A stretch of DNA of 60,060 nucleotides, taken from positions 1 through 60,060 of the IMG/VR virus record IMGVR_UViG_3300020201_000020; one strand, 5' to 3'. Positions 35,728-50,482 of the stretch are shown in pieces. Source of the DNA: a virus. Lineage: Duplodnaviria > Caudoviricetes. A model generated the notes under the pieces. It worked only from the letters and a program-made list of their open reading frames with translations. It had not been told where the DNA came from and ran no database searches. Position numbers and translations under genes: made by a program. Numbering within the stretch: the first letter of the stretch is position 1; each line of letters begins with the position of its first letter.

Positions 35728-36399
35728 TTGAGTAATGATAAAATAACCCGTTGGGTCAAGATCGTAGTTATGAGACTATTGAGGGAAAAGAATCTCTTCC
35801 ATCTCGATGTGTCCATGCTCGTCTCGGCCGGACTATTCGGCTATTCACAAGCACTCCAAAGATTTGAACCTTCCCGTAAAGTAAAACTAAAGACATTCGC
35901 AGAGTATAGAATTCGTGGCGCAGTCTTGGATGAGGTTAGGAAGATGATTGGAGATGAGCGAGTAAAAAATAAACGTCCGTACCTGGTTAGCACCCATGAC
36001 TTTGAATTTCTCCTTTCAGACGATGGTGAACAGGAAGAACAATTAGGGGTTGAGCTTTTCTTAGAATCACTTCCTTTGGAAACGAGAGACCTGCATATTC
36101 TAAAACTTAAATATATGGGTTACAATCTTAGAGAGATTGCTCAGATCATTGGTGTCTCTAATTCACGAGCTTCCCAGTTAATGGCAAGAGTGAAAAAGAT
36201 AGTTTATGATCACCATGAAGGAACTTTAAAGTTCAAGCTGAAGAAATTTATATGTCCAGCTTGCGGCTCAGAGAACCACTATTCCGATGAAGTTGATAAT
36301 TTTAGATGTGATGTTTGCGACACCGTTGTAGGGATAATAGATGGGTTTCCGATAATTGTTGCAGATTCAATGGGAGAGTTTGATGCCAATGTTTTGTGA
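35728..36399 (+). CDS. sigma-70 family (FliA/WhiG-like) sigma factor with C-terminal zinc ribbon
   Basis: SAGLFG..ALQRFEP..LKTFAEYRIRGAVLDEVR; LREIAQIIGVSNSRASQL; CPAC..CDVC. Confidence 0.88.
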   Translation: MSNDKITRWVKIVVMRLLREKNLFHLDVSMLVSAGLFGYSQALQRFEPSRKVKLKTFAEYRIRGAVLDEVRKMIGDERVKNKRPYLVSTHDFEFLLSDDGEQEEQLGVELFLESLPLETRDLHILKLKYMGYNLREIAQIIGVSNSRASQLMARVKKIVYDHHEGTLKFKLKKFICPACGSENHYSDEVDNFRCDVCDTVVGIIDGFPIIVADSMGEFDANVL

Positions 36400-37348
36400 T
36401 ATAACCGAAATTGCAGATACGCTTGATGACATGATCGAAAAAGGTCTAGCTATCAAGACAAACCAACAGGAAGACCTTCGTAAAGGTTTGACCTTCGATC
36501 CGTTCAATCCTTCAACCATGCACGAGCAGTCAACCATCTATAACCCTTACAAGTGGGTCGATGATGGTTACATGCCTTACACGGTGGATCATTGGAGAGC
36601 TTTAGGAAAATGCCCAGACAAGGAGAGCTATGCTGAAGTGGTGAAGCTCTACGACATGATCAACTTCAGGGTGTCGGCGTTCAAGTCATTCTCTAAGACA
36701 TTAGACACTGACCTGATCAAAGCTGGCGTTGTTCCCATTGGAACAGTTCACACCTATTCAAACGGTGTTAAATATAAAAAGATGCAGGAAGGTAAATGGG
36801 CACCGGTCAAAGACCTAAGCAAGCCCATGACTGGCCACGACGATATCGAGTCTCATGCTTCAGGCGTGAACAAGATCCAAGATCAAATCAAGTCACGAAC
36901 TAAAGACGATGCGCTCAGTGGCACTATTAAAGAAGAAGCTAAAAGAGAAGCACAGAAGCAAGTCCAAGAAGCCCTCAAGCAGGTGTTTGGTGGCGAGATG
37001 CCGGATGCCCTCAAAAAATACTTTGGAAAGGTCACCCAAGAGAACGACATGAAGGATCAAGAGAACGGAAAAGATGCTCCGACTAAATTGAAGGAAGCAG
37101 AAGAAGGACTCAAGCCTAAGAAGCACCACGTAGCGGTAGACTTCACGCATAACGGCAAAGCCTACAAGCATGAATTCCCGGCCGTCCATGGACATAGCAA
37201 AGAAGACGTTCAGGGTCGTGTAGTCGATATGATCAAAAAGAAACTTCCGGGTGCAGTCATTGGAAAAATTGCTGCCACATCGAAAGACGATGAAAAAGTT
37301 AAAGGACTAAGTCCTAAACAAGTTTGGAAAGATAAAAAGAAAGATTAA
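36383..37348 (+). CDS. putative head-packaged internal protein
   Basis: LIK|A followed by PIGTVHTYSNGVKYKK..GKW; head region. Confidence 0.55.
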   Translation: MPMFCDITEIADTLDDMIEKGLAIKTNQQEDLRKGLTFDPFNPSTMHEQSTIYNPYKWVDDGYMPYTVDHWRALGKCPDKESYAEVVKLYDMINFRVSAFKSFSKTLDTDLIKAGVVPIGTVHTYSNGVKYKKMQEGKWAPVKDLSKPMTGHDDIESHASGVNKIQDQIKSRTKDDALSGTIKEEAKREAQKQVQEALKQVFGGEMPDALKKYFGKVTQENDMKDQENGKDAPTKLKEAEEGLKPKKHHVAVDFTHNGKAYKHEFPAVHGHSKEDVQGRVVDMIKKKLPGAVIGKIAATSKDDEKVKGLSPKQVWKDKKKD

Positions 37349-37364
37349 AATTTAAGGAGACTAT

Positions 37365-38801
37365 ATGAACCAGCTCGAGAAGTTAGGCATCAAGATCGGC
37401 ACTCAAAAAACCATCGTAGACAACAGGATCCAAAAGTCTGAAGAGAACTATGACGTGTCACTTCAGGTTGTCCGTAAGGGTAACGGGATGTCACCTAGAG
37501 ACATGCTGGACAGACAGCTTTCTAAGGGAAGCAGCCTAGTCTACAAAGAGCCTAAACTAGTTCGCATGAGCAACCACGCAGACGATCAGTTAGACGCTGA
37601 CGATAGCTGGCAGAAGAAACGCCTTGAACAGCAAAACAAAGCTGACGCAGAGTTTGAATACGAGAAAGACTTTAATTATGCCCGTGGATCACACGGCGAA
37701 GAGTTTCATTCAGACGCTTCACTTCCAGACTATGCCATTCATGAAGTGGACAGGGAGTTCGGTGCCGAGTCACGCCCAGCCAAATCTAAAGCACGTCGTG
37801 ATGATTACGTAGGAGATGACCAAGGTGAAAAGCAGTACACCTATAAATCTGAAAACAATCTATTCCTTAAAGCCATTGATGCTTTAGATGATCTAGTCAA
37901 AGCGATTGACCCTTCTGAGAAGATGGCGAAGGACGCAGTTAATATTAAGAAAGAAAAGATGTCTAAGAAGCAGATGAACCTTGTTGCCAACATGCACGAG
38001 AATTCACCAGCGTTCACAGAGAAAAAGAAATCTTATTCAGACGTTGAAAAGGCTAATCCACTATTCCCCATCAAGCCTTCTAAGACGGTTAAAAAAGAGC
38101 CAAAAGATCCTGAAGAAAAGAATATAGAAAGAGAAGAAAGAGGCGAAGCTGAAAAGAGCTGCATGACCAAGTCAGACATTGACGAGCTTTATGATCTAAT
38201 CAAAGGCGGTTCAGTTCAGGAGATTGCCAAGGAAGAGGCGGCAGTTCGAGCTGCCCCAATCGCCAAGTCAGGAAAGTCTGAATATCTTAGACGTTCTCAT
38301 ATTCGTTCAGCCGGACAAGGTGGGCTCGTCTTCGACTTCGGCCCACTAACAGGGAATCCTATCGCCGACAATGCTACGGCCCTATTGAACGCCCATGGCG
38401 ACCAAGTACAGATGAACAATGCCAAGTATCAGTCTTCTGAATATAACAAGGCAATTGACTCATACGTAGAGAAAGGTGACGCAGCTTTTAGTTCTACTAA
38501 TTCTCCATTCAGCAATCTGAGCGGAGCTGCAGACCTAGATAAACCAATGGATCAGCAAGTGGCTGAAGCATTCGCCAAGGGTCTCTTAGATAATGACAAA
38601 TCAACTCCGGCGGTTAAGAATCATCATAACGAAAAACAAATGACCGTTGGTGGCGAAATCGTCAAAGCGACTTCTGAAACAGATGCCGCCTTAATCGAAA
38701 TGATGAAGGCTCAAGGCATGGACTTGTCTGACATGGCAGGGCATGGAGCGGTTGATGCGACAGGTGGTGGAGCTACTAAGGTGATTGCAGGATTGGATTA
38801 A
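37365..38801 (+). CDS. putative head-associated, proteolytically processed protein
   Basis: TAAGGAG SD; many hydrophobic-x-K-[ASG] sites; immediately precedes portal. Confidence 0.55.
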   Translation: MNQLEKLGIKIGTQKTIVDNRIQKSEENYDVSLQVVRKGNGMSPRDMLDRQLSKGSSLVYKEPKLVRMSNHADDQLDADDSWQKKRLEQQNKADAEFEYEKDFNYARGSHGEEFHSDASLPDYAIHEVDREFGAESRPAKSKARRDDYVGDDQGEKQYTYKSENNLFLKAIDALDDLVKAIDPSEKMAKDAVNIKKEKMSKKQMNLVANMHENSPAFTEKKKSYSDVEKANPLFPIKPSKTVKKEPKDPEEKNIEREERGEAEKSCMTKSDIDELYDLIKGGSVQEIAKEEAAVRAAPIAKSGKSEYLRRSHIRSAGQGGLVFDFGPLTGNPIADNATALLNAHGDQVQMNNAKYQSSEYNKAIDSYVEKGDAAFSSTNSPFSNLSGAADLDKPMDQQVAEAFAKGLLDNDKSTPAVKNHHNEKQMTVGGEIVKATSETDAALIEMMKAQGMDLSDMAGHGAVDATGGGATKVIAGLD

Positions 38802-38805
38802 TACT

Positions 38806-40635
38806 ATGGGTTTTGTAAATGAGTTCCTATCTAAGTCGATAGAGTTCTATAAGGAAGAGATTGGCCCATTAAGGTACGATCTTGTTAAGGCTGGGATTCT
38901 AGCACCGGACAAATCGGCGTATGAACCTAAGTCCTCCCTCGTAGACCCTTTTTCTTATGGCCAAGTAAACCAAGGCTACAAAGAGAAATACGGAATCATC
39001 GACTATCAGAAATGTAGACAGATCACATACGCAGACCCAATAGTCGCTTCCATTGTCCAGACACGCTTGAACCAGCTTGCAGCTTTTTCAAAGCCACAGT
39101 CAGACAAGTACAAAGTTGGATACAAGATATCCCTACGTGACAAGGAGAAGACTCCCACGGATGCTGAGAAGAAAAGATGTAAAGAACTCGAGCAGTTCAT
39201 TTATAACTGCGGCGTTCCAGAAAACTTCGAGGACACTCCAGACCTAAGACGTAGAGATAGCTTTGAAACTTTCATGCGTAAGATTGGCCGTGACTCTTTG
39301 ACGTTTGATCAGATCAACTTCGAGGTCATTCCAAGAAACGACGGGAAGCCGTACCAGTTTCAAGCTGTAGACGGTTCAACCATTCGTGTGATCCCAGACA
39401 AGAAGGAACACGCAGAACGATCGTCAGGAAACTATAACGAAAAAAACAACAGGGTCTTCTCCAATGACTTCGGCACGGCCAAGATCTTTAAAGAATTTGA
39501 GCCTAAGAATCCAAAGTTCGCACAAGTAATCAACGGCATCATTCGTCATACATACGACGAGTGGGAGATGGCGTTTGGTGTAAGAAATCCTAGAACAGAT
39601 ATTTTAAGCGCAGGTTACGGCTATTCAGAAATTGAGATGCTTGTCACAACAATCACCTCTCACATGAATGCTGAAACATATAACAGAAAATTCTTCTCGC
39701 AGGGATCTACCATTAAGGGTGTTATGACCTTTGAAGGGAACGTCCCGCCAGATCAATTGGAAGCTTTCCGTAGACAGTGGTATCAGCAAGTGACGGGAGT
39801 GAACAACTCTTGGAGAACGCCGATCATGGCACTTGGGAAAGACTCTAAGCTTAACTGGACTTCACTCCATTCTACTAACAGAGAAATGGAATTTGGTAAG
39901 TGGCTTGAGTATTGTATCAAGACTATTTGCGGTGTGTTTCAAATTGACCCTATTGAAATTGGTTTCGATATTTCAAAGCAAGGCTCTGGAGCTTCAGGTG
40001 GCTCTGGCGGTCTAGGGAACGGGAACCAAGCTGAACGAATGAACTTTTCAAAAGACAAAGGGCTTCTGCCTTTGCTTACGTTTATCGCTTCGCTACTCAA
40101 TGACTACATCGTTTTTAGACTCGATCCAAACTTCGTCCTAGAGTTTGTCGGCCTGAATGGATCAACAGAGAAAGACGACCTCGACAGGGCAGTTCAACAA
40201 GTAAAATCATATAAAACAATTAATGAGATAAGAGCCGAACATGACCTTGAGCCTTTGCCGTCGTTTGAAGAAATTAAAAATCCGGGCGACGTTGTCCTTG
40301 ATCCTTCTCTTCTTAACTTTATCACCAGTCAGATCGCAGCAGCACAAGCTCCTGAAGGTGGAGAACTCGGGCCAGACGGACAACCCCTTGATCCGCAAGC
40401 CGAAGATTCGCCACCAGATATGCAAGAGCCTCAAGACGAAGGCGAACAGGAAGAAGAGCCTGACTACGAATCAATGTCTACTGAAGAGCTGCAAGCTGAG
40501 TTAGATAAGCTTCAAACACCACAAGCTGGCGGTGGAAAACCTCCTGCTAAAGGCAAACAGCCACAGCAGAAGCAACCACAGCCAACTAGAAAGAGCATGA
40601 AGGAATTTAAGAAATCACTGGAGCTAGAACTTTGA
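38806..40635 (+). CDS. portal protein
   Basis: RDSLTFDQINFE, VRNPRTD, YSEIE, YNRKFFSQG, EMEFGKW, TINEIR (Twort/K-like portal). Confidence 0.93.
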   Translation: MGFVNEFLSKSIEFYKEEIGPLRYDLVKAGILAPDKSAYEPKSSLVDPFSYGQVNQGYKEKYGIIDYQKCRQITYADPIVASIVQTRLNQLAAFSKPQSDKYKVGYKISLRDKEKTPTDAEKKRCKELEQFIYNCGVPENFEDTPDLRRRDSFETFMRKIGRDSLTFDQINFEVIPRNDGKPYQFQAVDGSTIRVIPDKKEHAERSSGNYNEKNNRVFSNDFGTAKIFKEFEPKNPKFAQVINGIIRHTYDEWEMAFGVRNPRTDILSAGYGYSEIEMLVTTITSHMNAETYNRKFFSQGSTIKGVMTFEGNVPPDQLEAFRRQWYQQVTGVNNSWRTPIMALGKDSKLNWTSLHSTNREMEFGKWLEYCIKTICGVFQIDPIEIGFDISKQGSGASGGSGGLGNGNQAERMNFSKDKGLLPLLTFIASLLNDYIVFRLDPNFVLEFVGLNGSTEKDDLDRAVQQVKSYKTINEIRAEHDLEPLPSFEEIKNPGDVVLDPSLLNFITSQIAAAQAPEGGELGPDGQPLDPQAEDSPPDMQEPQDEGEQEEEPDYESMSTEELQAELDKLQTPQAGGGKPPAKGKQPQQKQPQPTRKSMKEFKKSLELEL

Positions 40636-40850
40636 AAGTTAGAATAGAAGCGACTCAAAAAGAATTCGACGCTAAGAGGAAAGCCCTTGGGGAACTTCTT
40701 AGCAAGTCGTCTTCTGAAGTGAAGTTCACAACTCCACGAAGAGGACGCTTCAAGGCCCAGCAAGAAATGCTTAAATATTATGATGATGAATTCAAGAAGT
40801 TACTCGTCGCAATAAAGGCAGACATAGATGAAATCATTAAACAAAACTAG
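40632..40850 (+). CDS. small head-region protein
   Basis: GGAG SD; TTGA coupling. Confidence 0.55.
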   Translation: MKVRIEATQKEFDAKRKALGELLSKSSSEVKFTTPRRGRFKAQQEMLKYYDDEFKKLLVAIKADIDEIIKQN

Positions 40851-43368
40851 GTTCTATGTAGAACCTGATGTGATAAAAGCTGACGTTGCTTCAGTCGCCG
40901 TTGTGCATGACGATAAAATTCTAATGATGCAAAGACGGGACAACTCTCGGTGGACATTGCCCGGTGGGCATCTTGATGACGGAGAAGATCCTTCTGAAGG
41001 TGCCAAGCGTGAACTAAAAGAAGAAGCAGGGATCATAGCTAACAAAGTTAGAAGCCTTGGCTCAGAAAAATTAACATCGTTCACTGGTAAGAAGATGACC
41101 ATTCATGCGTTCATCTATGAGCCAAAACAAAAACCAACATTCAATTCTAAAAACGATCCAGACAAAGAAGCTGGTGTTCACAAGTGGGTTAGTATCAAAG
41201 ATTTTCCACAAGACATAAAAGACAATCTTCATTCTCCTAGAAATACAGTCCTTAGAAAAATAGGTATTCTCAAAAGTCTTATGGACTCTGGAATTGACCT
41301 GCTAATGAAGGGTGTGAAGGGAGCGTCAGCAGCGAATCATAAATACATTCGCAAGTATAAGCGTGGGTCTAAGTGGGTCTATGTTTACGTTGAGCCTAAC
41401 GGGAAATCAAGAACGCTCCCAGATGAATGGATCAAAGCTGTTGAAAAGTTAGCAGCAGATGGCAGCGAAGTTGCTATGAAAATGCTTGAAGATGTCGTGG
41501 AATACGCTCCCGGTAAAATAGAAGAACTTAGGAAGCTTCACTCTCTTGGAAGTGAGCTGGCATCGAGACACTTGAAAGAAATGGGAATCGATCCAGCTAT
41601 TGAAGAAGTTGTTGAATCAATGAAGCCAGCCGACTCAGTACGTGCAAACTTAAGCGCAGAAGATAAGACTAAGGTTTTTAGTTCTATGGATTCTGCACTC
41701 AGTACGAATCTTTTTGACCGTTTAAATTCTCACAGAACAGGCCCTATTGGTTTAGCTCTTACTGCGCTTGTAGGTTCAGATTGGAATATTGCTCGTCGTA
41801 AAATAATGGATGCGGTAAACAAGAAGAAAACGACAGAAGAAATGCTTCAAGAGTTTCATAGACAGTTAAACGTGATCGACAGTCTTCCGGCCTCTGCCCG
41901 TCATGAGGTGACCTCGGCTGGAGGCGCAGGTAACTTTACCTACAATAAAGCAATTGAGCTCATGACGACCAAAGGAATTCTTCCTGAAGGGTATGGCACT
42001 GTTCACAAGAGGACTCCTGGATCTCCTGAACACGAAGTTCAAGGTGTCGATGACATTAGAGAAAGAGTCAAACGTGCTAAAGCAGAAAGAGCTAAAGCGG
42101 AAAGAGTTGAAGCAGAAAGAGAACAGAGAGAGCTTGGAGAATATATTCCTAAAGCAGAAGCAGTGCTTTCTTATTACGGAAAAACTGTCAACGATGCTGC
42201 AAAGATCACTATAGCTAAAAACATAAGAAAGTTTTTTGGTGCTAATTTTGACATGGTAAAATTTGATAAATTTTTAAACCCTGACAGTAGAAACTCTACA
42301 GTGATCAAAATAAGTGACGGATTCCTAAGTGGACTAGAAGGGAACTCAGGAAGGGAAAGAGAAATTTCTTTTTCATTTGACATAAAAGATAGCAGAACAG
42401 GTGCTCAAGTAACGGGTGCTTCTAGAAGGATTATAAAGAACTCTGACAATTCTATCCATTTCCATAATGACCACTTCCGCAGACCCGGAAATGATAAGCT
42501 TGAAAAGTATGAAGGCATGTCTAAAGGTATGTATGCCGGTGTTGAAAATTTCATGAAAGAAGTAACAAAAGACTATCCAGAAGCTGCTAAGAATAACTCG
42601 ACAATAGAAATGGGTGCGGCAAATCACGGATTTGGAGATTCATTTAAAGGGTCTCTATTGTGGGCAAAGCATTACTTTGATTTTAAAAACAGCAGTGATC
42701 TTTCAAAGTGGAAGTCTACATTTACAGCGGCAATAGATCAGGCAAAAATAGATATACCATCTATGGCCTCAGACCTTGAGGCTGTGAAGAAGAAAATATC
42801 CTCATTTAAGCATCCATATCAGTTTGTCAATCTAGGTATAAAGGTGAACAGGGTTCAAGCTGGCAAACTGGCGAAATACAGAGGGTCAGCAGTTGTCGCA
42901 GGAGTAACCCATAGCAACGGTCTTGATTTTGATTTTAACAGAATATTTAATGCCAAGGAAGCTGTCCGTAATGGAATAGCTGGTGATGGGAAAATCGACA
43001 TTGGAGAAGTCCTTCTGATAAAGGGTCAGGATAGTTTTTATGGTATAAATTATTTCAACAAAAAGACTCCTCCTCCTAGCGTCTTGAATGATTTTAGAAC
43101 AGCCTATTACAATAGAGAAGGCGGGGCGACTGCAGGTGCAGCTCCCGCTAGTGCAGCTCCCGCCGGACGCTTTACTTCTCCAAGAGTAAAAGAGACTGTA
43201 GAAAGAACTTGGAAACCGAAAGGAAAGTCTATCGTTATGAACGCAGATAGGCTTAGGCAGATAGGCTCTTGGAGCAAAGAAGAGATCCATGAGTTTTACC
43301 AAAAAGCTCCGCTCACAAGAGATGCTAAGGAAAGAGTTAAGCAGATAATGAACAGTATTGGAGGATGA
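40828..43368 (+). CDS. multidomain putative ejected protein: NUDIX hydrolase, HKYI motif and GNAT-like domain
   Basis: Nudix box PGGHLDDGEDPSEGAKRELKEEAG; HKYIRK...WVYVY; IEMGAAN..KGSLLWAKHYFDF. Confidence 0.7.
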   Translation: MKSLNKTRFYVEPDVIKADVASVAVVHDDKILMMQRRDNSRWTLPGGHLDDGEDPSEGAKRELKEEAGIIANKVRSLGSEKLTSFTGKKMTIHAFIYEPKQKPTFNSKNDPDKEAGVHKWVSIKDFPQDIKDNLHSPRNTVLRKIGILKSLMDSGIDLLMKGVKGASAANHKYIRKYKRGSKWVYVYVEPNGKSRTLPDEWIKAVEKLAADGSEVAMKMLEDVVEYAPGKIEELRKLHSLGSELASRHLKEMGIDPAIEEVVESMKPADSVRANLSAEDKTKVFSSMDSALSTNLFDRLNSHRTGPIGLALTALVGSDWNIARRKIMDAVNKKKTTEEMLQEFHRQLNVIDSLPASARHEVTSAGGAGNFTYNKAIELMTTKGILPEGYGTVHKRTPGSPEHEVQGVDDIRERVKRAKAERAKAERVEAEREQRELGEYIPKAEAVLSYYGKTVNDAAKITIAKNIRKFFGANFDMVKFDKFLNPDSRNSTVIKISDGFLSGLEGNSGREREISFSFDIKDSRTGAQVTGASRRIIKNSDNSIHFHNDHFRRPGNDKLEKYEGMSKGMYAGVENFMKEVTKDYPEAAKNNSTIEMGAANHGFGDSFKGSLLWAKHYFDFKNSSDLSKWKSTFTAAIDQAKIDIPSMASDLEAVKKKISSFKHPYQFVNLGIKVNRVQAGKLAKYRGSAVVAGVTHSNGLDFDFNRIFNAKEAVRNGIAGDGKIDIGEVLLIKGQDSFYGINYFNKKTPPPSVLNDFRTAYYNREGGATAGAAPASAAPAGRFTSPRVKETVERTWKPKGKSIVMNADRLRQIGSWSKEEIHEFYQKAPLTRDAKERVKQIMNSIGG

Positions 43369-43570
43369 TGTGGACATAGAAGAGTATATGATGGTCGATT
43401 CTATTGAGGGAGACTTTGAGCACCTCGTAGAGGCTGAATATGAAAAAGAAATGTTCCACAGGCTAGTCGAAGATTTGCTTGGTTCTGACTATTACCAGCT
43501 TGGAATGCAAATTTGCGAAGACAATCCAGCGTTGAAAGTTAAATTTGAATCATATTTTAGAGGCCCATAA
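43358..43570 (+). CDS. small acidic protein
   Basis: 70 aa; overlaps end of 40828. Confidence 0.55.
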   Translation: MEDDVDIEEYMMVDSIEGDFEHLVEAEYEKEMFHRLVEDLLGSDYYQLGMQICEDNPALKVKFESYFRGP

Positions 43571-43572
43571 TA

Positions 43573-44496
43573 GTGCTGACTAAAAAAGAGTTGAAAGAAA
43601 TTGAAGAAGTAATCAAGAACCGCTTTATAGCTTTTCGATATGAGCATCTAGCAGATCGAAGCTTGACCCCTGCAGATCTTGAACAGCTTAAACGAGCAGG
43701 AATCCTACGGGAGTCTGTTCGTAATTTCTCAGGCGATGCATTCGCTCTCGGCAAGATAGTCGGTGCCGTTGGTGAAAAAGAATCACTCTCGATGGGCTTT
43801 GATGAGCTCCAAAAGATGGTTCTAAAAATGCCACGAACCACAGTTGAAAAGAAAGCTATAGAATTCGCTAACGACCATGCTGGGGAATACATCCAAGGCA
43901 TAGGCGACCTGATAATTAAAGATGTCAGGACAGGCTCTGTTAGAGCGACAGGGGAAGCCTTACGTTCCGTTCAGGATGGAGTGAAGAACGCCATCAAGGA
44001 TCGTAAAACTATTTCAGAACTTAGAACAGATTTGTTTCACCGCATTGATGACCGTTTCAAGGACTGGCAAAGAGTCGCTCACACAGAGATGGCCAGCTCA
44101 ATTCAAAACGGGATATACAACGACATAAGAGAAAATTCAAAACACGGATCAGACCAGTTGGTATTTAAAAGACCTTCTCCTGATGCGTGTAGTCACTGTA
44201 AAAGAATGTATCTTGAATCTGACGGGATCACTCCTCTCATATTTAAGATGAGCGAACTTTCAGCTTCCAACATTGGAAAAAAAGCAGCTGATTGGGAGCC
44301 AACTATAGGGCCTGTTCACCCGTGGTGCCAGTGTCAGCTTCAAATGGTTCCAGATGGTTTCGAGTTCAAGACGAGCAAAGATGGTAATGCAGAGCTTGTC
44401 TATACGGGCAGATCGGCTACAATTTCATTAAAGAAGAGTTTTAACAATGACATGCTTTCCGATGAAGAGTCTGAATGCGTATGTAAGTATGAATGA
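43573..44496 (+). CDS. MuF (SPP1 gp7-like) minor head protein
   Basis: DWQRVAHTE, ACSHC, PVHPWCQC. Confidence 0.85.
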   Translation: MLTKKELKEIEEVIKNRFIAFRYEHLADRSLTPADLEQLKRAGILRESVRNFSGDAFALGKIVGAVGEKESLSMGFDELQKMVLKMPRTTVEKKAIEFANDHAGEYIQGIGDLIIKDVRTGSVRATGEALRSVQDGVKNAIKDRKTISELRTDLFHRIDDRFKDWQRVAHTEMASSIQNGIYNDIRENSKHGSDQLVFKRPSPDACSHCKRMYLESDGITPLIFKMSELSASNIGKKAADWEPTIGPVHPWCQCQLQMVPDGFEFKTSKDGNAELVYTGRSATISLKKSFNNDMLSDEESECVCKYE

Positions 44497-46807
44497 AAAA
44501 AGGCAGAGTATGGAAAAGTTTGTAATTAGTAATGATCTGATTAAATCCTCTAGATATCATAAATACATTAAGCGAACGGGCAGCCCCGGTCACTACAAAT
44601 ATTGGTACAAAGACGCATCAGGCAGACTGGTTTCTCACGAAGACGATGCCCATGATGGCGCAAAACACGAGCACGTAAAAAGACTCTTTGTTGGAAAGAA
44701 GGCTGGTCATCATTCTATGACGAATGCTGAAATATCAGCACTAACCGGTGTCAACGCTAAGAAGGTCAGAGACATTGGAACAGCGGTCAGACCAGGGCCA
44801 ACACCTGCATCTCAAACTTATCACGAACATGAATTGCATGAAGCAAAACATAGCGATGTGGGGTCTGATGAATACACTCGAAAAATTGAAAGTATTAAGA
44901 ACGAAATTGAATCAAGAGGAACAGCAGGCTCAAGACCCGCAGCAGCAAGAGCGAGTAGATCAAGAGCAACACCGGCAGCAGCTCCAGCTCGACCAGCTAC
45001 AACAACTCCTTCAAGAGCGAGTGCTCCAGCAGCCGCCGCAACTCCAGCAGCACCCACGGAGACTCCTGCCGCCAAAAAAGAAAGAGAAAAAAAAGAAGCA
45101 ATAGAAGCAGGATTAGCAAGACTAAAAGCAGTGTATGGCACTGATCTAGTGGCCATGTATGGGAAACCAGCAGCCGCTCCAGCCGCTCCAGCCGCTCCAG
45201 CCGCTCCAGCTCCCGCTGGGCTTGGACCAAATATGGCATCACTGTTCGGGACAGACGCTGGCGAAGCTACTAGCTCAAGTCGAAATATTGCCAAAGTTCA
45301 ACAAATTGAGCAAGCAAGGGCTGCATTGACGAATTTGTCTTTAAGAGACGAAGCAAGAAAAGACGCTGTTGAAGAACATTCTGATGGATCTATTTCTAGG
45401 TCGTACAGGGTCTATCATTATTTCACTGCTAGAGATGGCGAGGAAGACGATGATCAGCCAAACTTCACAGGAGGGGTAGAAGCCCTTGCAGAAGTTAAAA
45501 GCAAACTTCCCGCTTCAATATTAGAAAAATTCAATGTTACGGTAGAAGACAATAGCGAAAAGTCTTGGATGGATGTTGTATTACGGCCTAAAGCACCGAC
45601 TGCTGCAAGACCGGCAGCTCCCACTGCCACAGCCGCACAAACCCAAGCCCGTGAAGCAACCGCTGCCGCTAGGGCAGAACTAGCTTCTCCTGAAACGGCG
45701 GAACTACATGTTGGCGATCCAGAGCTTGCAAGGCTTGATGCATCCATTAATAAGATGGTTGAAGATCAGACTGCTGGGAAAAATCCATACGTTATAAGAG
45801 CGAAAGAGTTCTATGAAAAAGTGAAGAATGACATAACAAATACTCAGGTCTCTCCAGAAAGAAGCACTACTGTTAAAAACTTTCTTGCTGCGATTGCTCA
45901 GGCAGGTCATGGTGCCAATGAAGCCTCGGTGAAAGCTGCCTATGTAGGAATAAGAACAAGTACAGGTAAAGGATCAGCATGGGCACAGGCTCAAAAAGAT
46001 GTTTTTGATACTGTCTTCCATACGGCCAAAGAGCTGATAGGCAACGAGCCAGTGAATGTGGACATGGAACGTATGAAGCGTGGATTTGGTAGAATGCAGT
46101 TTGAAAGACTGAAGCCCTTCTTGAAACCGGAGTTTGCTGCTGGACTAACAAATGGTGCTCCACCTCCATATCCAACATACAACGATCTTCAAGACTGGCC
46201 TTCTGATGAAGCGGGTCGTCCTGCTTGGTCAAAAGAACCAAGAAAGATAAATAAGAAAGTCCCTAAAGAGTTCTTTGATTCAATGCCGAAAGACGCAGAC
46301 GGGAAGGTGTCAATGCCTCCTAAAGACTTTCCTCTTCATTTAACTCCTGTCTGGAATTATTATGCCAAAGATATGGCCACTCCATACGGGGAAAGACTAG
46401 ACGCTAACGATATGGGTTCTGATCAAAAGTTTAGAATGCCTAGTGCAGGAGACCTAAGAAGCAAGCTTAGAAACACTGTTAGAAAATTTATCCAAGTCAG
46501 GGGTGAAAACAGCTTTGCTGACATACCTGCATCCGAAGCTCAAAGGAAGGGAGTCAGGCTAGAAGACCTATACAAGTCTGACGACAGCTTTAAGAGAGTT
46601 ATGGCCACTAAGGTTATTCCTATGGGAGATCTTGTTAGGTTTATAAAAGAGCAGTCACAGACCAAGAAGTCCTTCTCCCTATGCGTGGATGAGAATCTCG
46701 GTGCCGCAACCTTTAAAAAGGCTTTCACTATTGAAGACGATATGAAAAAATCTGATCTAATTAGTAAGATTAAAAAATTAAAAAAATCGATTGGGAATAA
46801 AGCATGA
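44447..46807 (+). CDS. large putative head-packaged protein with HKYI motif, HTH and Ala/Pro linkers
   Basis: LIK|S..HKYIKRTG..HYKYWY; MTNAEISALTGVNAKKV; start probably 44489 or 44510. Confidence 0.65.
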   Translation: MTCFPMKSLNAYVSMNEKRQSMEKFVISNDLIKSSRYHKYIKRTGSPGHYKYWYKDASGRLVSHEDDAHDGAKHEHVKRLFVGKKAGHHSMTNAEISALTGVNAKKVRDIGTAVRPGPTPASQTYHEHELHEAKHSDVGSDEYTRKIESIKNEIESRGTAGSRPAAARASRSRATPAAAPARPATTTPSRASAPAAAATPAAPTETPAAKKEREKKEAIEAGLARLKAVYGTDLVAMYGKPAAAPAAPAAPAAPAPAGLGPNMASLFGTDAGEATSSSRNIAKVQQIEQARAALTNLSLRDEARKDAVEEHSDGSISRSYRVYHYFTARDGEEDDDQPNFTGGVEALAEVKSKLPASILEKFNVTVEDNSEKSWMDVVLRPKAPTAARPAAPTATAAQTQAREATAAARAELASPETAELHVGDPELARLDASINKMVEDQTAGKNPYVIRAKEFYEKVKNDITNTQVSPERSTTVKNFLAAIAQAGHGANEASVKAAYVGIRTSTGKGSAWAQAQKDVFDTVFHTAKELIGNEPVNVDMERMKRGFGRMQFERLKPFLKPEFAAGLTNGAPPPYPTYNDLQDWPSDEAGRPAWSKEPRKINKKVPKEFFDSMPKDADGKVSMPPKDFPLHLTPVWNYYAKDMATPYGERLDANDMGSDQKFRMPSAGDLRSKLRNTVRKFIQVRGENSFADIPASEAQRKGVRLEDLYKSDDSFKRVMATKVIPMGDLVRFIKEQSQTKKSFSLCVDENLGAATFKKAFTIEDDMKKSDLISKIKKLKKSIGNKA
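45171..45210 (+). repeat. 9-bp tandem repeat (CAGCCGCTC)x4+ encoding (PAA)n
   Basis: read directly. Confidence 0.85.
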
Positions 46808-47022
46808 TTGAAAAATCTCACAACCTCGACTGTCCTAAGTGTGGCTCGAGCGTGATCAAGTCCTATGCCGACGAAGCCAAGCTCAGAATGAAGGTAATCA
46901 TTTGGAACAGAGATGGTATGTATGCGGTCTGCAAGAGCTGTGATCATGAGATTAAGATCGAAATGGATCTCCTAAAGTCCATGCAGACCAAGTTTTCTTA
47001 CGAGGTGGATAAAAATTCCTAG
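46804..47022 (+). CDS. zinc-ribbon protein
   Basis: CPKC...CKSC. Confidence 0.7.
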   Translation: MIEKSHNLDCPKCGSSVIKSYADEAKLRMKVIIWNRDGMYAVCKSCDHEIKIEMDLLKSMQTKFSYEVDKNS

Positions 47023-47141: not shown

Positions 47142-47969
47142 ATGTCTAAAGATTTTTACATCAACGAATCTTCGTTTAAGGTTTGGCTCCCAGATGTGGA
47201 GTTCATCAAATCTTCAGACGCAGACAACGAGAAACATAATTCACGAAAAATTTCAGGCGTTATGACCACTCAACGGAAAGACCGTCAGGGTGAGGTTTTG
47301 GTAGCTAAGGGATTAGACTTCTCAGACTTCCTTTCCCATGGCCACTTCAACGACAACCATTCTCAGGGAACTGCAGACATCGTTGGTTACCCAGAAAAAG
47401 CAGACTTCCATTCAAACTTAAAATCATATAGTCAAAAACTTGACGACGTGCAAGGTTGGACTTGCGAAGGCTACGTTCTGAAAGGAACTAAAAAAGCTGA
47501 CGCTATTTGGGAGCTTGCTCTCGCCCTTCAAAACGTACCAAACAGAAGCCTAGGATTCTCGGTCGAAGGCAAAGTCGAAAGACGTGAGGATAAAACTATC
47601 GCTCGTGCTCGCATCAGAAATGTAGCTATCACGAATTGTCCGGTTAATACGGACTGCGACTGGTCGATCCTAGAGAAGTCTTTCTACGAGCCTGAATACG
47701 CCATGAAGTCCATGATGGCCGGTCATGCTACTGGCATCGACGCTTCCGGTGGTGGAGCAATCCGTGGTGAGTCTCTGGACGCAAAACTTAAAGATCTATC
47801 AGATTCAGATAAGAAGAAAAAAGCAAAATACGAAGCACTAAAGAGAGCATTGGAGTTCGATGATCTCATGAAGGCCGTTGATATTGTTTTAGAACGTAAA
47901 CCAACATGGGATGTAGACGCAGCAACGCTTCTCATCGCACATCTTTTCAAGAAGGGAGGCAAGCTATGA
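47142..47969 (+). CDS. prohead protease
   Basis: DRQGEVL, FNDNH, LGFSVEG, NVAITNCPVN. Confidence 0.92.
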   Translation: MSKDFYINESSFKVWLPDVEFIKSSDADNEKHNSRKISGVMTTQRKDRQGEVLVAKGLDFSDFLSHGHFNDNHSQGTADIVGYPEKADFHSNLKSYSQKLDDVQGWTCEGYVLKGTKKADAIWELALALQNVPNRSLGFSVEGKVERREDKTIARARIRNVAITNCPVNTDCDWSILEKSFYEPEYAMKSMMAGHATGIDASGGGAIRGESLDAKLKDLSDSDKKKKAKYEALKRALEFDDLMKAVDIVLERKPTWDVDAATLLIAHLFKKGGKL

Positions 47970-48209: not shown

Positions 48210-49007
48210 ATGAGCAAAAAAGTAACAGAAGATGCTGTCCTCAAAGCACTCGCATCTTTGGATGCAGAACTAGGGGAAGACGTAGTCAAGGCATCAGACG
48301 ATGATCTTGATCAGCCAGAAGGTGCCGATCTCGGTAATCCCGCTAAAGACAAAATGTCAGCTGCTGCTAAGTCGAAAGACAGCAAGGAAGATGACAAACC
48401 TGCCTTTATGAAAGGTGACGAAGACGGCGAAGAGGAAGACGAAGACGAAAAACCAAACCCGTTTGAGAAAGGAAAGAAGATGAAAAAATCTTTCACGGAA
48501 GATATGCCGGAAGAAATTGAAACTAAGATCGACGTGTCTGAGTTTCTTAAATCATTGGTGAAGCATACAGGCGAAACAATTGACTCTTTAACAGAGTACG
48601 TTGTTAAGAGTGACAAGCATCATTCTGGCCGTTATGGGGAACTTGTTGGACAAGTTGAAGAGATCCAAAAATCTCAAGCTAAGATTGGTCTTGTTCTGAA
48701 AGCAATCTGCGAACAGATCGGCGTGGTAAAGTCAGCTCCTGCTCGTTCTACAAAGAGCGAAACAGTAGCTAAGTCTGCCCCAGTCGCTGAACGTAAGTTC
48801 AATTCAGGGTTAGAAAGCGAAGCTGCAGAAGAGAAAATGTTTAAGTCACTATCAGAAGACCCACGTATTGCTAAGTCACAAATGAGCGAAACTCTTTGCG
48901 ACCTAGTTAAATCAGGTCACGCTACCGATATGGACGTAATCACTTTCGAGTCTAACGGTTTCATCCGTCCAGAGCTTGTTGGTAAACTAAAAGAAAAACT
49001 TAACTAA
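48210..49007 (+). CDS. putative scaffolding protein
   Basis: acidic, lies between protease and MCP, many xxK[AS] sites. Confidence 0.7.
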   Translation: MSKKVTEDAVLKALASLDAELGEDVVKASDDDLDQPEGADLGNPAKDKMSAAAKSKDSKEDDKPAFMKGDEDGEEEDEDEKPNPFEKGKKMKKSFTEDMPEEIETKIDVSEFLKSLVKHTGETIDSLTEYVVKSDKHHSGRYGELVGQVEEIQKSQAKIGLVLKAICEQIGVVKSAPARSTKSETVAKSAPVAERKFNSGLESEAAEEKMFKSLSEDPRIAKSQMSETLCDLVKSGHATDMDVITFESNGFIRPELVGKLKEKLN

Positions 49008-49021
49008 TAAAGGAGTCCTAA

Positions 49022-50482
49022 ATGACGTATCCAATGGTTGATACTAAGAGCTTTGAAGGCCACGGCGAAGGCTTCGGTACTTCTTCTGCTCAAGATGTTC
49101 AAGATTTAAACAAAGCCTTAACTGCAGGTTACGCAGTTGATCCGGGAACACAAGCTGGTGGTGGTGCTCTTAGAGTTGAATCTCTAGATGCAACATTGAA
49201 GATTGTTTCTTTCCTTGAGAAGAACATTGTATTTTACAATGATATTCCAAAGACAAAAGCCTACAACACTGTTGAAGAGTATAACCTACTCAGCAAGTAC
49301 GGTGGACGTGGTGGTTTCTTTATTGAAGAGGGTGGACTACCCCGCACTGAAGATTCTAACTATCAACGTAAAGCAGCTTTCGTGAAGTTCATGGGTACTA
49401 CTCGTGAAATCTCTCACCCAATGTTGCTCGTTCGTCCAGCTCACGGAAACGTAGTAGCTCTTGAGACGAAGAACGGTGCTAAATGGATGCTTCAACGGAT
49501 GGAAGAGTCTCTTTTCTCTGCTGATAGCTCAATCATTTCTCAGTCGTTTGATGGTATCCACAAGCAATTGATTGATGGTTATTCAGATGTGAACACTGCT
49601 GGCGATGGAAAAGATGCCGTTTCTAACGAGCATGTTATCGATCTTCGTGGAAAGATTCTTTCTGAAGCTGTGTTTGAAGAAGTTGCTCGTATCCTTCTTG
49701 ATAACTACATGTACCCTACTCACTGTTATATGAGTAACGTGAACTCAACTGACTTCAACAAGTCATTCTTCTCTAAAGGAAGATACCAGATTCCTGTAGG
49801 AGCTGATGCTTCTGTTGGTTTCGTTGTTGATAAAGTTAAGACTTCTGGTGGTCTTGTTCAGTTACGCCCTGACGTGTTCTTGCGTGTAAACGTAACGGCT
49901 CCAATCAGTGCTGACAACGCTCTTGCTCCAACGGCTCCAGCTTCTGCTGTGATCCTTGCTCAAGCAGCAACGACTTCTCGTGGCTTCAAAGCTGCTGAAG
50001 TTGGAACATACATTTACGAAGTTACTGCGATTTCTAAATCAGGTGAGTCACAAGCGACTCCGGGTTCTGCCGCTGCAGTGGTTACTACTGGTAACAACGA
50101 AGTTAAAATCACGATTAGTCGTGGTGCTGTCTCTGGTAACGAGCTTACTCAGGGTTACAACATCTACCGTACTCGTCTTGAAGACGGCGTTGCTGGCAAG
50201 AGGTATCTTGTTCAAAAGATCGCTTCTGCGGGTGTGTCTACTATCTTCCTTGATGGTAACGAAAACCTTCCGGGCCATGGTGTTGCTTATATGGGTCAGC
50301 TTGATGAATCGGTTCTTACTCTTCGTGAGTTGTCACCGATGCTTAAGTTCCCTCTTGCGACCGTTGCTTCTTCAATCCGTTGGATGCAGTTGTACTACAA
50401 CACTCCAATCGTGTTCCGTCCTCGTGGATGGGTAATCATTAAGAACATCGGTTTCTTAAAGCAGCCTGACCTTAGCATCTAA
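49022..50482 (+). CDS. major capsid protein
   Basis: LNK|ALTAGY..GGGALRVESLD, EEYN, EGG.P, FDGI; Twort/K-type MCP. Confidence 0.95.
   Translation: MTYPMVDTKSFEGHGEGFGTSSAQDVQDLNKALTAGYAVDPGTQAGGGALRVESLDATLKIVSFLEKNIVFYNDIPKTKAYNTVEEYNLLSKYGGRGGFFIEEGGLPRTEDSNYQRKAAFVKFMGTTREISHPMLLVRPAHGNVVALETKNGAKWMLQRMEESLFSADSSIISQSFDGIHKQLIDGYSDVNTAGDGKDAVSNEHVIDLRGKILSEAVFEEVARILLDNYMYPTHCYMSNVNSTDFNKSFFSKGRYQIPVGADASVGFVVDKVKTSGGLVQLRPDVFLRVNVTAPISADNALAPTAPASAVILAQAATTSRGFKAAEVGTYIYEVTAISKSGESQATPGSAAAVVTTGNNEVKITISRGAVSGNELTQGYNIYRTRLEDGVAGKRYLVQKIASAGVSTIFLDGNENLPGHGVAYMGQLDESVLTLRELSPMLKFPLATVASSIRWMQLYYNTPIVFRPRGWVIIKNIGFLKQPDLSI

Follow-up and report, generated by a model that had tools for sequence, protein, structure and literature searches.

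The window, the 60,060-nucleotide stretch of viral DNA analyzed here, is from an uncultured SPO1-like phage in which extra genes have been placed around the portal gene. Their products carry the cut motif of the capsid protein followed by a small basic hairpin, which suggests that the head is loaded with enzymes and other proteins that are released by cleavage and probably injected along with the DNA. Terminase, portal, protease, scaffold, and capsid genes were all identified, and four large ORFs, called 36383 (with an alternative start at 36356), 37365, 40828, and 44447 after their first positions, are set among the portal, MuF-like, protease, scaffold, and capsid genes, the interleaving with portal and MuF having been recognized in a preliminary description (Table 1). 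In SPO1, the portal, protease, scaffold, and capsid genes are contiguous and the gap between portal and protease is empty. The extended gene order of the window repeats in loci L001 to L022. We consider it likely, from sequence comparison, that the four genes and the small ORFs between them are capsid-internal cargo genes inserted into an SPO1-type head operon, that they belong among the phage-type polyvalent proteins, and that their products would be built into the prohead, cut by the prohead protease, and, by analogy, ejected with the DNA.

Table 1. Features of the head region of the window; a slash in a motif, here and in the text, marks the proposed point of cleavage.
Feature	Position	Strand	Basis or remark
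Gene 36383, 321 aa from ATG 36383	36383..37348	+	homologues at same position in L001, L006, L009, L014, L022
Cut motif DLIK/A (36710-36724) and header 2, GVVPIGTVHTYSNGVKYKKMQEGKWAPV (36725-36808)	36710..36808	+	
Gene 37365, 478 aa; conserved N terminus MNQLEKLGI, conserved C-terminal domain from ~aa 315	37365..38801	+	
Cut-like junction HIR/SAGQGGLVFDFG, start of conserved C-terminal domain of 37365	38295..38342	+	
Portal protein, YDLVK/AG at 38875-38895	38785..40635	+	PF04860 E 1.7e-18
Small conserved ORF, 72 aa, between portal gene and 40828	40632..40850	+	homologues at same place in 7 distinct relatives
Gene 40828, 846 aa	40828..43368	+	NUDIX PF00293
Cut motif DLLMK/GVKG (41296-41322) and HKY hairpin type B, HKYIRKYKRGSKWVYVYVEPNG (41338-41403)	41296..41403	+	
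Small conserved acidic ORF, 70 aa, ahead of MuF-like gene	43358..43570	+	
MuF-like head morphogenesis protein, 307 aa, CxxC...HPWCQC cluster	43573..44496	+	phrog_4728 E 1.1e-4; alignment A5
Gene 44447, 765 aa from ATG 44510	44510..46807	+	probable true start, revised from 44447
Leader MEKFVISNDLIK/SS (44510-44551) and HKY hairpin type A, HKYIKRTGSPGHYKYWYKDASGRLV (44558-44632)	44510..44632	+	
Two conserved C-terminal cut-like motifs in 44447, EDLYK710/S and DDMKK768/S	46562..46756	+	
Small conserved Zn-ribbon ORF, 72 aa, CPKC...CKSC, bears DLLK/S	46804..47022	+	
Prohead protease	47142..47969	+	phrog_1028 E 3.7e-48; 44% identity to SPO1 gp3.2
Scaffold-like protein, EDVVK/AS at 48276-48296	48210..49007	+	position and composition
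Major capsid protein, maturation motif QDLNK31/A32L at 49100-49120	49022..50482	+	phrog_752 E 1.1e-90

The direct observations concern motifs: how enriched and how conserved they are, and which domains accompany them. The strict motif of the cargo genes, [DE]-[LIV]-x-K/[AGS], matches the maturation site of the major capsid protein itself. As defined after inspection of the window, it occurs 13 times in 4,603 aa of head-module ORFs and 3 times in 14,439 aa elsewhere (odds ratio 13.6, p 2.5e-6), and the same contrast in relatives gives 103 in 67,335 aa and 7 in 22,449 aa (odds ratio 4.9, p 7e-7). The counterpart in the SPO1 capsid protein is ALNK23/A24. Moreover, the mature capsid protein of a related phage (PDB chain 9row_B, 439 aa) has a first residue that aligns with A32 of the window, and the full-length form (5lii_P) reads DVVK24/S25, such that 9row_B begins directly after K24, aligned with K31/A32. 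The motif is kept in 13/13 capsid proteins, in 12/13 protease C termini of relatives, and, as [DE]L.K/AG, in all 12 portal rows that cover the N terminus, the window's included and three truncated rows left out. The prohead protease bears VEFIK/SS (47196-47216), DDLMK/AV (47859-47879), as well as a capsid N-arm copy that includes the site, YAMK/SMMAGH (47697-47726). The scaffold motif EDVVK/AS is present in most relatives, and a second scaffold site is not conserved. The MuF-like protein has no Pfam match and no cut motif, and its homologues carry one motif in a total of 5,393 aa, which is background.

Directly past the cut sites are two conserved and widespread modules of about 25 to 30 residues, basic and aromatic, each of which is predicted from its residue pattern to be a beta-hairpin. 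The first, HKYI[RK]...Y.Y, occurs twice in the window, shortly past L-x-K/[GS] in both 40828 (DLLMK/GVKGASAANHKY) and 44447 (DLIK/SSRYHKY), and HKYI[RK] was found exactly twice in the six-frame translation (nt 41338 and 44558). The stretch of DNA that the two motifs had been said to share is indeed there, as the 14-mer ATCATAAATACATT (exactly 2 copies against 0.06 expected; at least 2 in 0/100 shuffles), but it encodes just (N/Y)HKYI and gives no indication of recent duplication. In the type A hairpin, H, K, Y, K, R, T, G, G, Y, Y, W, and Y are invariant across eight sequences. The second module, header 2 (PIGTVH..YKK..EG.W.PV), abuts LIK/A in 36383 (DLIK/AGVVPIGTVHTYSNGVKYKKMQEGKWAPV), as the preliminary description had it, and gene 37365 has neither module; the proposal that each of the four proteins carries one therefore stood for 36383, 40828, and 44447 only.

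A search across phages with an HKY profile, as had been proposed, matched 705 protein clusters at an E value of ≤1e-3 and 103 at ≤1e-10. Among the 188 hairpin instances in the best 150 of the 705, 165 are preceded within 12 residues by [LIVMF]-x-K-[AGS], a figure that was in part selected for because the profile took in six residues upstream of the His; 11 lack an upstream Lys site, and the spacing from Lys to hairpin is three residues in 92. Almost all of these 150 proteins have the cut motif three to four residues ahead of the hairpin. Counts made without selection on upstream residues came from the loci themselves. In the core loci L001 to L022, the 14 residues ahead of the hairpin include a cut motif in 14/14 distinct type B hairpins and in 12/17 type A hairpins; in distant loci, 15 of 19 type A hairpins have the Lys site (7 upstream, 8 with Lys abutting His) and 4 do not. 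Random 14-residue windows contain the cut motif in 8.3% of cases. For header 2, the profile matched 112 proteins, cut motif and header are kept together in seven further loci, and L-x-K[AGS] is within 10 residues upstream in 51 of the 53 instances found by regular expression, with a spacing of four in 40. No HKY hairpin was found in cultured phages by tblastn (E ≤ 1; 50,697 records), the single match being at chance level, and neither header matched a Pfam model, LPD families included (E ≤ 10). We found no publication or Pfam model describing the cassette of cut site plus hairpin.

From these observations we infer cleavage, packaging, ejection, and a role for the hairpin. Cargo precursors would be synthesized late and incorporated into the prohead, where the SPO1-type protease (47142) would cut them after the Lys of [DE]-[LIV]-x-K/[AGS] as it trims the capsid protein at K31/A32. 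Each cut would leave a basic aromatic hairpin three to four residues from the new N terminus, HKY in 40828 and 44447 and PIGT..YKK..W in 36383. The expected products are a free 16-kDa NUDIX hydrolase and a 76-kDa HKY-headed protein from 40828, an HKY-headed protein of ~73 kDa with a new helical domain from 44447, a 23-kDa header-2 protein, and the 17-kDa C-terminal domain of 37365. The released pieces would then exit together with the DNA and function at an early stage of infection.

Perhaps the hairpin is an N-terminal tether to DNA or portal that holds each released piece to the genome, a reading we offer tentatively. A serious contender is that the hairpin instead targets proteins to the capsid by binding scaffold or capsid protein, or acts as an exosite presenting the adjacent bond to the protease. 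A stand-alone 44447 with a leader of a mere 12 residues needs some route into the prohead, the fixed gap of three to four residues to the cut would suit an exosite, and N-terminal targeting signals have precedents in T4 and P1, as PMC9024508 describes a capsid targeting sequence for T4 IPIII and reports that the first 30 residues of P1 DarB suffice for packaging. Nonetheless, the capsid, portal, and scaffold sites work without a hairpin, and the hairpin core, with a mean net charge of +4.7 and 6.6 aromatic or His residues per 26, suits nucleic acid binding. Moreover, the hairpin would remain on the product, whereas T4 targeting leaders, being upstream of the cut, are lost.

The larger parts of the cargo are conserved. 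Gene 40828 encodes, in order, a leader to DVIK17/A, a NUDIX domain (aa 21-129, nt 40888-41214), the cut DLLMK161/G, the HKY hairpin, a helical stretch, and a conserved C-terminal domain. By sequence, the NUDIX hydrolase (PF00293, E 1.2e-19; 71.1 bits against a cutoff of 21.1) is intact, Nudix box GGHLDDGEDPSEGAKRELKEEAGI included, and is the only recognizable enzyme in the window. It is present in 28/33 members of alignment A4, and 38 proteins, the window's own (P0029) among them, match the C-terminal part of 40828. The preliminary description had proposed cleavable pro-regions. The cut sites themselves were supported by comparison, as they match the capsid site and are enriched in the head module, but the supposed pro-region of 40828 is itself cargo, because it is an intact enzyme, and that of 44447 is a leader of 12 residues, Met22 to Lys33. 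For 44447, ATG 44510 is likely the true start because it is preceded by AAGGCAGAG, falls beyond the stop codon of MuF (44496), and agrees with homologues, which open MFVI.NDL.K. The leader is followed by the type A hairpin, helices, Ala/Pro linkers flanking a variable insert, and a conserved helical C-terminal domain (aa 414-786, nt 45686-46804). Ala/Pro linkers, also foreseen, are plain in 44447 (~aa 160-300 and 395-420) and by the C terminus of 40828. EDLYK710/S and DDMKK768/S are kept in 38/40 and 33/39 aligned homologues, respectively, and border the low-confidence tail of the 44447 model.

In 36383, a conserved acidic N-terminal region is followed by the cut motif with header 2 and by a charged linker, which leads to a C-terminal domain (nt 37124-37276) that is small and conserved; 36383 is a better start than 36356 because GGGAGAG lies upstream and the database form is 321 aa. 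In 37365, [FC]-[ILV]-K/[SA]-x-G-x-G-G marks the junction in 8/9 relatives, the P1 residue of the window being Arg rather than Lys, and of its four strict sites those at aa 176 and 277 are absent from relatives. The C-terminal domain of 37365 also ends a 1,196-aa HKY protein, P0067, as a fusion. Searches of Pfam and PHROG returned zero family matches for 36356, 37365, and 44447.

Contrary to the idea of a variable cargo, relatives retain the large C-terminal domains of 40828, 44447, and 37365, and we note that such domains could be structural. Were that so, 44447, 37365, and the C-terminal portion of 40828 would be structural or assembly parts of the head, such as an internal core, inner body, or ejection conduit, and only swappable N-terminal or side modules, here NUDIX, would be effectors, although the cuts and hairpins would still hold. 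We consider this unlikely, even though the large domains occupy fixed positions in all close relatives without an enzyme signature. The AlphaFold2 model of the 44447 C-terminal domain is all-helical (pLDDT 80.8, pTM 0.73) and matched no fold among solved or predicted viral structures, which also fits a head part. In addition, the authors of a phi24B preprint suggest an ejection-conduit role for their large polyvalent protein. SPO1-type heads, however, assemble without such proteins, and the HKY header shared by 44447 and 40828 also heads clear enzyme cargo. Finally, ESM Atlas neighbors of 40828 aa 440-770 hint at a GNAT-like fold, in a low-confidence model without sequence support.

Another possibility, which we regard as improbable, is that L-x-K-[AGS] is left uncut in the cargo; it would then be a cap or initial strand within the hairpin fold, and the polyproteins would remain whole. 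A Lys-to-hairpin spacing fixed at three to four residues is what a single folding unit would give. The motif, however, also occurs where there is no hairpin, at the capsid maturation site and at conserved positions of portal, scaffold, and protease, and in some lineages the Lys abuts the His. Moreover, when a hairpin opens a protein naturally, His is residue 4 in 12/17 cases (M-R-S-HKY), with no upstream strand and with a spacer of the same length as that left after a cut (A-R-G-HKY).

Relatives provide domain partners for the cargo units. Units of cut site plus hairpin sit between Pfam domains of polyvalent proteins, and such domains are found in 23/31 large matches. The partners include MuF, MuF_C, PBECR2, ART-PolyVal, ddrB-ParB, SNF2, Zeta, RelA_SpoT, and LPD1, which with InPase are the polyvalent repertoire that recurs in hairpin-bearing relatives, as well as SAM lyase, Acb1/2H, PolyA_pol+HD, and NUDIX. 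The suggested comparison of cargo domains also found LPD1, SNF2, RelA_SpoT, Zeta toxin, and SAM lyase at the window's own gene positions, which makes the claimed resemblance to polyvalent or co-injected proteins genuine; the claimed likeness to Dar proteins was not supported, as no Dar homologue was found in the window. In other phages, fusion proteins have the hairpin after a portal, MuF, or S78 protease domain, and MuF is fused upstream of cut-plus-HKY units in P0057, P0079, P0096, and P0104. All 50 of 50 viral loci place the hairpin ORF in a virion module (46 by blastp; L026, L040, and L041 by PHROGs; L025 being a truncated copy of L024). It is thus very improbable that these are ordinary cytoplasmic proteins, unpackaged and encoded in the head operon by chance, for although morons and auxiliary genes do occur in structural operons, as the sigma-factor gene does here, the cargo has the cut motif of the capsid protein, its headers are covalently joined elsewhere to portal, MuF, and protease domains, and the loci are virion modules throughout.

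Head-packaged cargo proteins have several precedents. A polyvalent protein of phage phi24B has been detected in virions by mass spectrometry. In giant phages such as phiKZ and SPN3US, many head-internal proteins are cleaved at a single short motif by the prohead protease and ejected, and in the sources as far as available we found no conserved header described past the cut. Their protease cuts after Glu; both the protease family and the motif differ here. T4 internal proteins (IPI-III and Alt), which travel inside the head and are delivered to the cell, have short N-terminal leaders of about 10 to 17 residues that end in the head protease motif. In T4, gp21 cleaves after the Glu of L-x-E or I-x-E, whereas here the cut would follow Lys and be made by an SPO1-type protease, the conserved hairpin would stay on the mature N terminus, and the unit also punctuates long polyproteins. 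The P1 Dar system (DarB, DarA, Hdf, DdrA, DdrB, and Ulx) consists of head-packed antirestriction proteins. The P1 capsid protein is cut after Glu120, and the authors found no motif shared by the Dar N termini, according to PMC9024508; the cargo here, in contrast, has a header in common.

Also close are the polyvalent proteins, for which Iyer, Burroughs, Anand, de Souza, and Aravind (2017; PMC5512222) predicted packaging in the head and delivery along with the DNA. As described there, polyvalent proteins are large, multimodular, and encoded beside portal and MuF, as in the window, and processing was proposed to be by a built-in zincin-like peptidase, MPTase. Here no MPTase domain was found, the junctions bear the motif of the prohead protease itself, and the cargo is split over separate genes in which NUDIX is the only known domain. 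Next to hairpin proteins, the distant loci L037 and L038 encode ddrB-ParB proteins and DarB-like methylase-helicase proteins. A sigma-factor gene is also located inside the head operon of the window.

We infer that four extra proteins encoded near the portal gene, each named by its start nucleotide (36383, 37365, 40828 and 44447), are cargo proteins that are cleaved, packaged and ejected. SPO1 has its portal, protease, scaffold and capsid genes directly consecutive, and therefore the approximately 6.5 kb between portal and protease, together with two genes ahead of the portal, are extra in this large uncultured myovirus. The window is a complete contig of 60,060 bases that represents part of the phage, and all of its called genes lie on the plus strand. 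The preliminary description had placed four large noncanonical ORFs here, and all four are indeed found among the portal, terminase, and head genes; for three of them (36383, with an alternative start at 36356, 37365, and 44447), neither Pfam nor PHROG has a matching family. The capsid protein shares approximately 39% identity with its counterparts in SPO1-group Bacillus phages, and 784 of 784 matching records fall below 60% identity. Megablast found no cultured phage DNA matching the region. Moreover, tblastn found no cultured relatives with 44447 or with 40828, the latter matching NUDIX domains only, and a 40-residue HKY segment gave a single chance-level match (E 0.6) within a tail sheath gene. 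Between the terminase and cargo genes lies a sigma-70-like gene that is kept in relatives and is without the cut motif discussed below. Three small conserved ORFs are interleaved with the cargo genes, the third a Zn ribbon carrying DLLK/S (a slash marks the predicted cut); that the three are paralogues was rejected on comparison.

Features of the window, with positions in nucleotides
Feature	Position	Strand	Remarks
DnaE-type polymerase, RecA/UvsX-like protein, SbcCD	first part of window	+	replication genes
DnaE (Pol III alpha)	356-4417	+	PHP, NTPase, finger, HhH and OB domains; HNH-type intein, aa 812-1056
RecA/UvsX-like protein	6927-8918	+	HNH-type intein, aa 163-374
SbcC-like protein	11401-14151	+	LAGLIDADG-type intein, aa 46 to about 310
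DNA methyltransferase with two flanking ParB-like genes	17044-19428	+	methyltransferase in the middle
PAPS-reductase-like gene	23122-23928	+	
Second methyltransferase	32416-33189	+	immediately upstream of terminase
Terminase	33715	+	
Sigma-70-like gene	35728-36399	+	regions 2 and 4 plus C-terminal Zn ribbon
Small ORF	40632-40850	+	72 aa
40828, aa 440-770	42145-43140	+	
Small ORF	43358-43570	+	70 aa
44447, C-terminal Lys motifs	46562-46756	+	
Small ORF	46804-47022	+	72 aa
Prohead protease	47142	+	downstream of extra-gene region
Protease, aa 186-220	47697-47800	+	copy of capsid N-arm
Scaffold	48210	+	
Major capsid protein	49022	+	after scaffold
Neck and tail sheath		+	after capsid protein

How the extra proteins resemble head proteins lies in a putative prohead protease site. 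Each of the four extra proteins contains the motif [DE]-[LIVM]-x-K-[AGS], which is also present in the portal, the protease, the scaffold, and the capsid protein (DLNK31/A32). The head-module ORFs of the window (4603 aa) contain 13 copies and the rest of the window (14439 aa) contains 3 (odds ratio 13.6, p 2.5e-6), the pattern having been defined after the window had been inspected. Relatives, which provide a partly independent count, have 103 copies in their head-module homologues (67335 aa) and 7 in their other ORFs (22449 aa; odds ratio 4.9, p 7e-7), with MuF homologues at background (1 in 5393 aa). The site is conserved in 13 of 13 capsid proteins, in all 12 portal rows that include the N terminus (3 cut rows dropped), and at the C terminus of 12 of 13 proteases from relatives (Glu in L001; 4 rows dropped as truncated). 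The N-terminal scaffold site is kept in most relatives, and a second scaffold site is not.

For cleavage after Lys by this type of head protease, PDB chains were the source, because the literature searched gave no statement of the capsid cut site in SPO1-like phages. Chains 5lii_P (463 aa) and 9row_B (439 aa) represent one related capsid protein, the second lacking exactly the initial 24 residues of the first. The former, which we take to be from staphylococcal phage phi812 (the database label is only "Major capsid protein"), reads ...EDVVK24-S25FQTGY, and the latter starts at S25, which aligns with A32 of the window. Since 9row_B begins right after K24 of 5lii_P, we conclude that these proteases cut after the Lys of the motif. 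SPO1 itself has ALNK23/A24 in its capsid protein and FFLGADILK/S in its protease. The window protease is 44% identical to SPO1 gp3.2 over 216 residues (E 2e-47), matches phrog_1028 (E 3.7e-48), and is encoded ahead of the scaffold and capsid genes, as in the SPO1 type. We note that the protease also carries a copy of the capsid N-arm with its cut site (YAMK/SMMAGHATGIDASGGGAIRGESLD versus DLNK/ALTAGYAVDPGTQAGGGALRVESLD in the capsid protein), as does SPO1 gp3.2, and the copy may be a means of building the protease into the shell. Hint/intein inserts interrupt the protease (L004, L014, and L021), portal (L005), and MuF (L021) of some related loci.

A few residues behind the cut motif, 40828 and 44447 share a basic module, the HKY hairpin, whose fold is predicted from its residue pattern. 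As first described, HKYI[RK] occurs exactly twice in the six-frame translation of the window, each time a few residues behind L-x-K/[GS], and a different module in 36383 sits after DLIK/A. The DNA shared by the two genes, a 14-mer found twice versus 0.06 expected, merely encodes the shared peptide. The hairpin comes in two flavors, HKY[IV]KRTG.PG.YKYWYK (type A, in 44447) and HKY[IL]RKY...G.W[IV]Y[IV]YHEG (type B, in 40828), and H-K-Y-x-K-R-T-G-x-x-G-x-Y-x-Y-W-Y is invariant in seven database homologues of 44447. Neither HKY segment matched a Pfam family at E<=10. The core is basic and aromatic with a mean charge of +4.7, a composition that suits DNA binding, although the hairpin may instead serve in capsid targeting or as a protease exosite.

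The hairpin is widespread and tied to virion genes. A scan of viral contigs found 50 loci, approximately 22 with full-length homologues in the same gene order and the rest sharing the hairpin only. The preliminary description would have been refuted by a motif equally common outside head regions; this test did not refute it, as the hairpin ORF lies in the virion module at 50 of 50 loci. In more distant phages, the hairpin stands behind the portal domain (L023, L031, L046, and L048), between portal and MuF domains, in the gene following the portal, or behind an S78 protease domain (L043). The suggested profile search across phages, run with 40 positions against 1.84 billion representatives, returned 705 clusters when the threshold was E<=1e-3 and 103 when it was E<=1e-10, many with 2 to 5 copies. 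Two units occur in giant ORFs, such as those of 1441 aa (units at 171 and 800) and 2300 aa (837 and 1494). A word-based search retrieved 50 proteins, all from metagenomes, 31 of them with NUDIX. A family scan of one genome per species (185,579 species) found only two loci, L052 and L053. Both lie on contigs of approximately 104 to 109 kb that were binned as MAGs (labels Flavobacteriales and Legionella) but probably represent phage DNA and not prophages.

The hairpin is also tied to the cut site. Among the best 150 proteins, [LIVMF]-x-K-[AGS] lies within 12 residues upstream of the hairpin in 165 of 188 instances, with a logo of D-[LI]-x-K/[ASG]-R-[GSP]-H and a spacing of 3 residues in 92 instances, 4 in 24, and 9 in 19; 11 instances stand at the very N terminus and 11 are without an upstream site. 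Because the profile included six upstream residues, instances not selected on those residues were counted separately. By this count, a cut site precedes 14 of 14 type B hairpins in core-locus flanks and 12 of 17 type A hairpins in core loci, the other 5 lying at protein starts, and of 19 hairpins in distant loci, 7 have a site upstream and 8 have Lys immediately before the His; for comparison, 8.3% of random 14-residue windows contain a site. For the profile hits, 74 of 164 cut sites fall in the first 40 residues. Where the hairpin begins a protein naturally, His is residue 4 in 12 of 17 cases (M-R-S-HKY), so that spacer and residues match those behind a predicted cut. This agreement argues that the module is adapted to a position three residues away from a free N terminus and hence that the Lys bond is cut.

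The four proteins combine these elements differently. 36383, which starts at ATG 36383 behind GGGAGAG, has a conserved acidic N-terminal part, a predicted cut, its own module, and a small C-terminal domain. 37365 has no header; its conserved C-terminal domain follows [FC]-[ILV]-K/[SA] in 8 of 9 relatives, with Arg in the window, and two of its four strict cut sites are not conserved. In 40828, a 17-residue leader ending in DVIK/A (MKSLNKTRFYVEPDVIK/A) is followed by NUDIX, DLLMK161/G, the HKY hairpin, and a conserved domain. The NUDIX domain (PF00293, aa 21 to 129) scores 71.1 bits versus a cutoff of 21.1 (E 1.2e-19), and on inspection its Nudix box, GX5EX7REUXEEXGU, is intact at aa 46 to 69; every NCBIfam equivalog fell below cutoff. 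The C-terminal part matches 38 proteins, including the window's own (P0029), and a profile search against the PDB matched only NUDIX chains. ESM Atlas neighbors of aa 440 to 770 were uncharacterized bacterial proteins of approximately 270 aa (TM 0.50 to 0.52 by query) and GNAT acetyltransferases (TM 0.26 to 0.31 by query, low-confidence underlying model). Assignment as GNAT was rejected, as the lead came from that low-confidence model and 0 of 33 homologues gave an acetyltransferase match at E<=1.

In 44447, a 12-residue leader (MEKFVISNDLIK/S) precedes the HKY hairpin, helices, Ala/Pro linkers flanking a variable insert, and a conserved C-terminal domain. The true start is most likely ATG 44510, since this codon lies downstream of the MuF stop with AAGGCAGAG upstream and homologues begin MFVI.NDL.K. 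The C-terminal domain was modeled confidently (pLDDT 80.8, pTM 0.73), and comparison with solved and predicted viral structures found no match to it. Two conserved Lys motifs near the C terminus, EDLYK/S in 38 of 40 and DDMKK/S in 33 of 39 sequences, suggest that the tail may be trimmed too. The idea that the tail mimics the scaffold C terminus was dropped, as the scaffold pattern occurs in 10 of 13 scaffolds and in 0 of 23 44447 homologues. The neighboring MuF-like gene has no Pfam match at E<=10, PF04233 included, and only phrog_4728 ("head morphogenesis") at E 1.1e-4; its post-portal position and a Cys/His cluster are conserved.

The module of 36383, header 2, is likewise widespread. Seven additional loci conserve its pattern, K/..VP[IV]GT[VI]H.Y.DG..YKK..EG.W.PV, ahead of differing cargo, and its profile found 112 proteins with partners of the same kinds as those of the HKY hairpin. 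A Lys site lies upstream in 51 of 53 regex instances, at 4-residue spacing in 40. No relatedness between the two modules was detectable (hhalign probability 0.4%), and no Pfam family at E<=10 contained the header-2 segment. P0217, a 1131-aa database protein recorded at NCBI as "sigma-70 family," has two header-2 copies and no blastp likeness to the sigma-70-like gene of the window.

The preliminary description likened the extra proteins to polyvalent or P1 Dar-type proteins. Relatives at the position of 40828 have 2 to 5 domains (e.g., L007, L010, and L014), among them NUDIX, LPD1, DUF5661, DUF6321, SNF2 helicase, and RelA_SpoT, and the domains that relatives have in place of 36383 are SAM lyase, Zeta toxin, and RelA_SpoT. 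Pfam domains occur in 23 of 31 large profile hits and include MuF, MuF_C, PBECR2, ART-PolyVal, ddrB-ParB, SNF2, Zeta, RelA_SpoT, SAM lyase, Acb1/2H, PolyA_pol plus HD, PAPS reductase, LPD1, and NUDIX, with cut-plus-hairpin units positioned between them. This repertoire matches that of phage-type polyvalent proteins as described by Iyer et al. 2017 (PMC5512222). Polyvalent signatures occur in relatives and in further hairpin proteins, but the four window proteins have none of LPD1-40, MuF, MuF_C, ART-PolyVal, ddrB-ParB, PBECR, or the other signature domains (Pfam, E<=10), and only 40828 has a recognized domain (NUDIX, plus the conserved domain without assignment). Because the signatures lie in the relatives and not in the window proteins, we regard the latter as kin of the polyvalent class that would work alike without its signatures. 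As for the Dar proteins of P1, Pfam showed no domains of the DarB (N6 methylase plus helicase), DarA, Hdf, DdrA/B, or Ulx kind in the four proteins, and ddrB-ParB and N6_Mtase plus SNF2 appear in distant loci only.

Head-packed internal proteins cut by a protease are already known, as are polyvalent proteins. The head protease motif of T4 is cut after Glu by gp21. T4-type internal proteins have a short N-terminal leader ending in the motif of their own head protease, and 44447 and 40828 have such a leader too, but the window sites have Lys at P1 and the protease is of the SPO1 gp3.2 kind. For polyvalent proteins, a built-in metallopeptidase was proposed as the processing enzyme by Iyer et al. 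2017 (PMC5512222), whereas the window junctions carry the motif of the head protease instead. No MPTase or other peptidase family was found by Pfam in the four proteins; MPTase is frequent in the polyvalent class and not universal.

Perhaps, and we put this forward as a tentative and rather unlikely idea, the cut site plus an N-terminal hairpin (HKY, PIGT-YKK, and possibly others) serves phages whose head proteases cut after Lys as a portable "cargo code." A protein behind the code would be loaded, freed by the maturation protease, held on DNA or portal by the hairpin, and sent out first with the genome. If so, phage polyvalent proteins would in general be processed by the prohead protease instead of by a peptidase of their own, and the hairpin would offer a convenient means of bringing foreign proteins into capsids; were the hairpin sufficient, it would be a tool for such packing. 

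Polyvalent proteins are regarded as a main route by which phages bring anti-defense enzymes into the cell, and one was detected in phi24B virions by mass spectrometry. How they enter the head and are dismantled has been guesswork so far, and junctions with a capsid maturation motif plus an uncataloged conserved hairpin in hundreds of clusters yield a specific rule, open to testing, for how loading and processing occur. The cut-site-plus-hairpin cassette was in no paper found by literature search and has no Pfam model, and the same search found no paper linking prohead protease cutting to polyvalent proteins. The cassette could also serve as a sequence flag for injected proteins in metagenomes; many of these contain domains of unknown type, the C-terminal domain of 44447 being one example.

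Finally, we note that the replicase of this phage with an SPO1-like head is a bacterial-type Pol III alpha.
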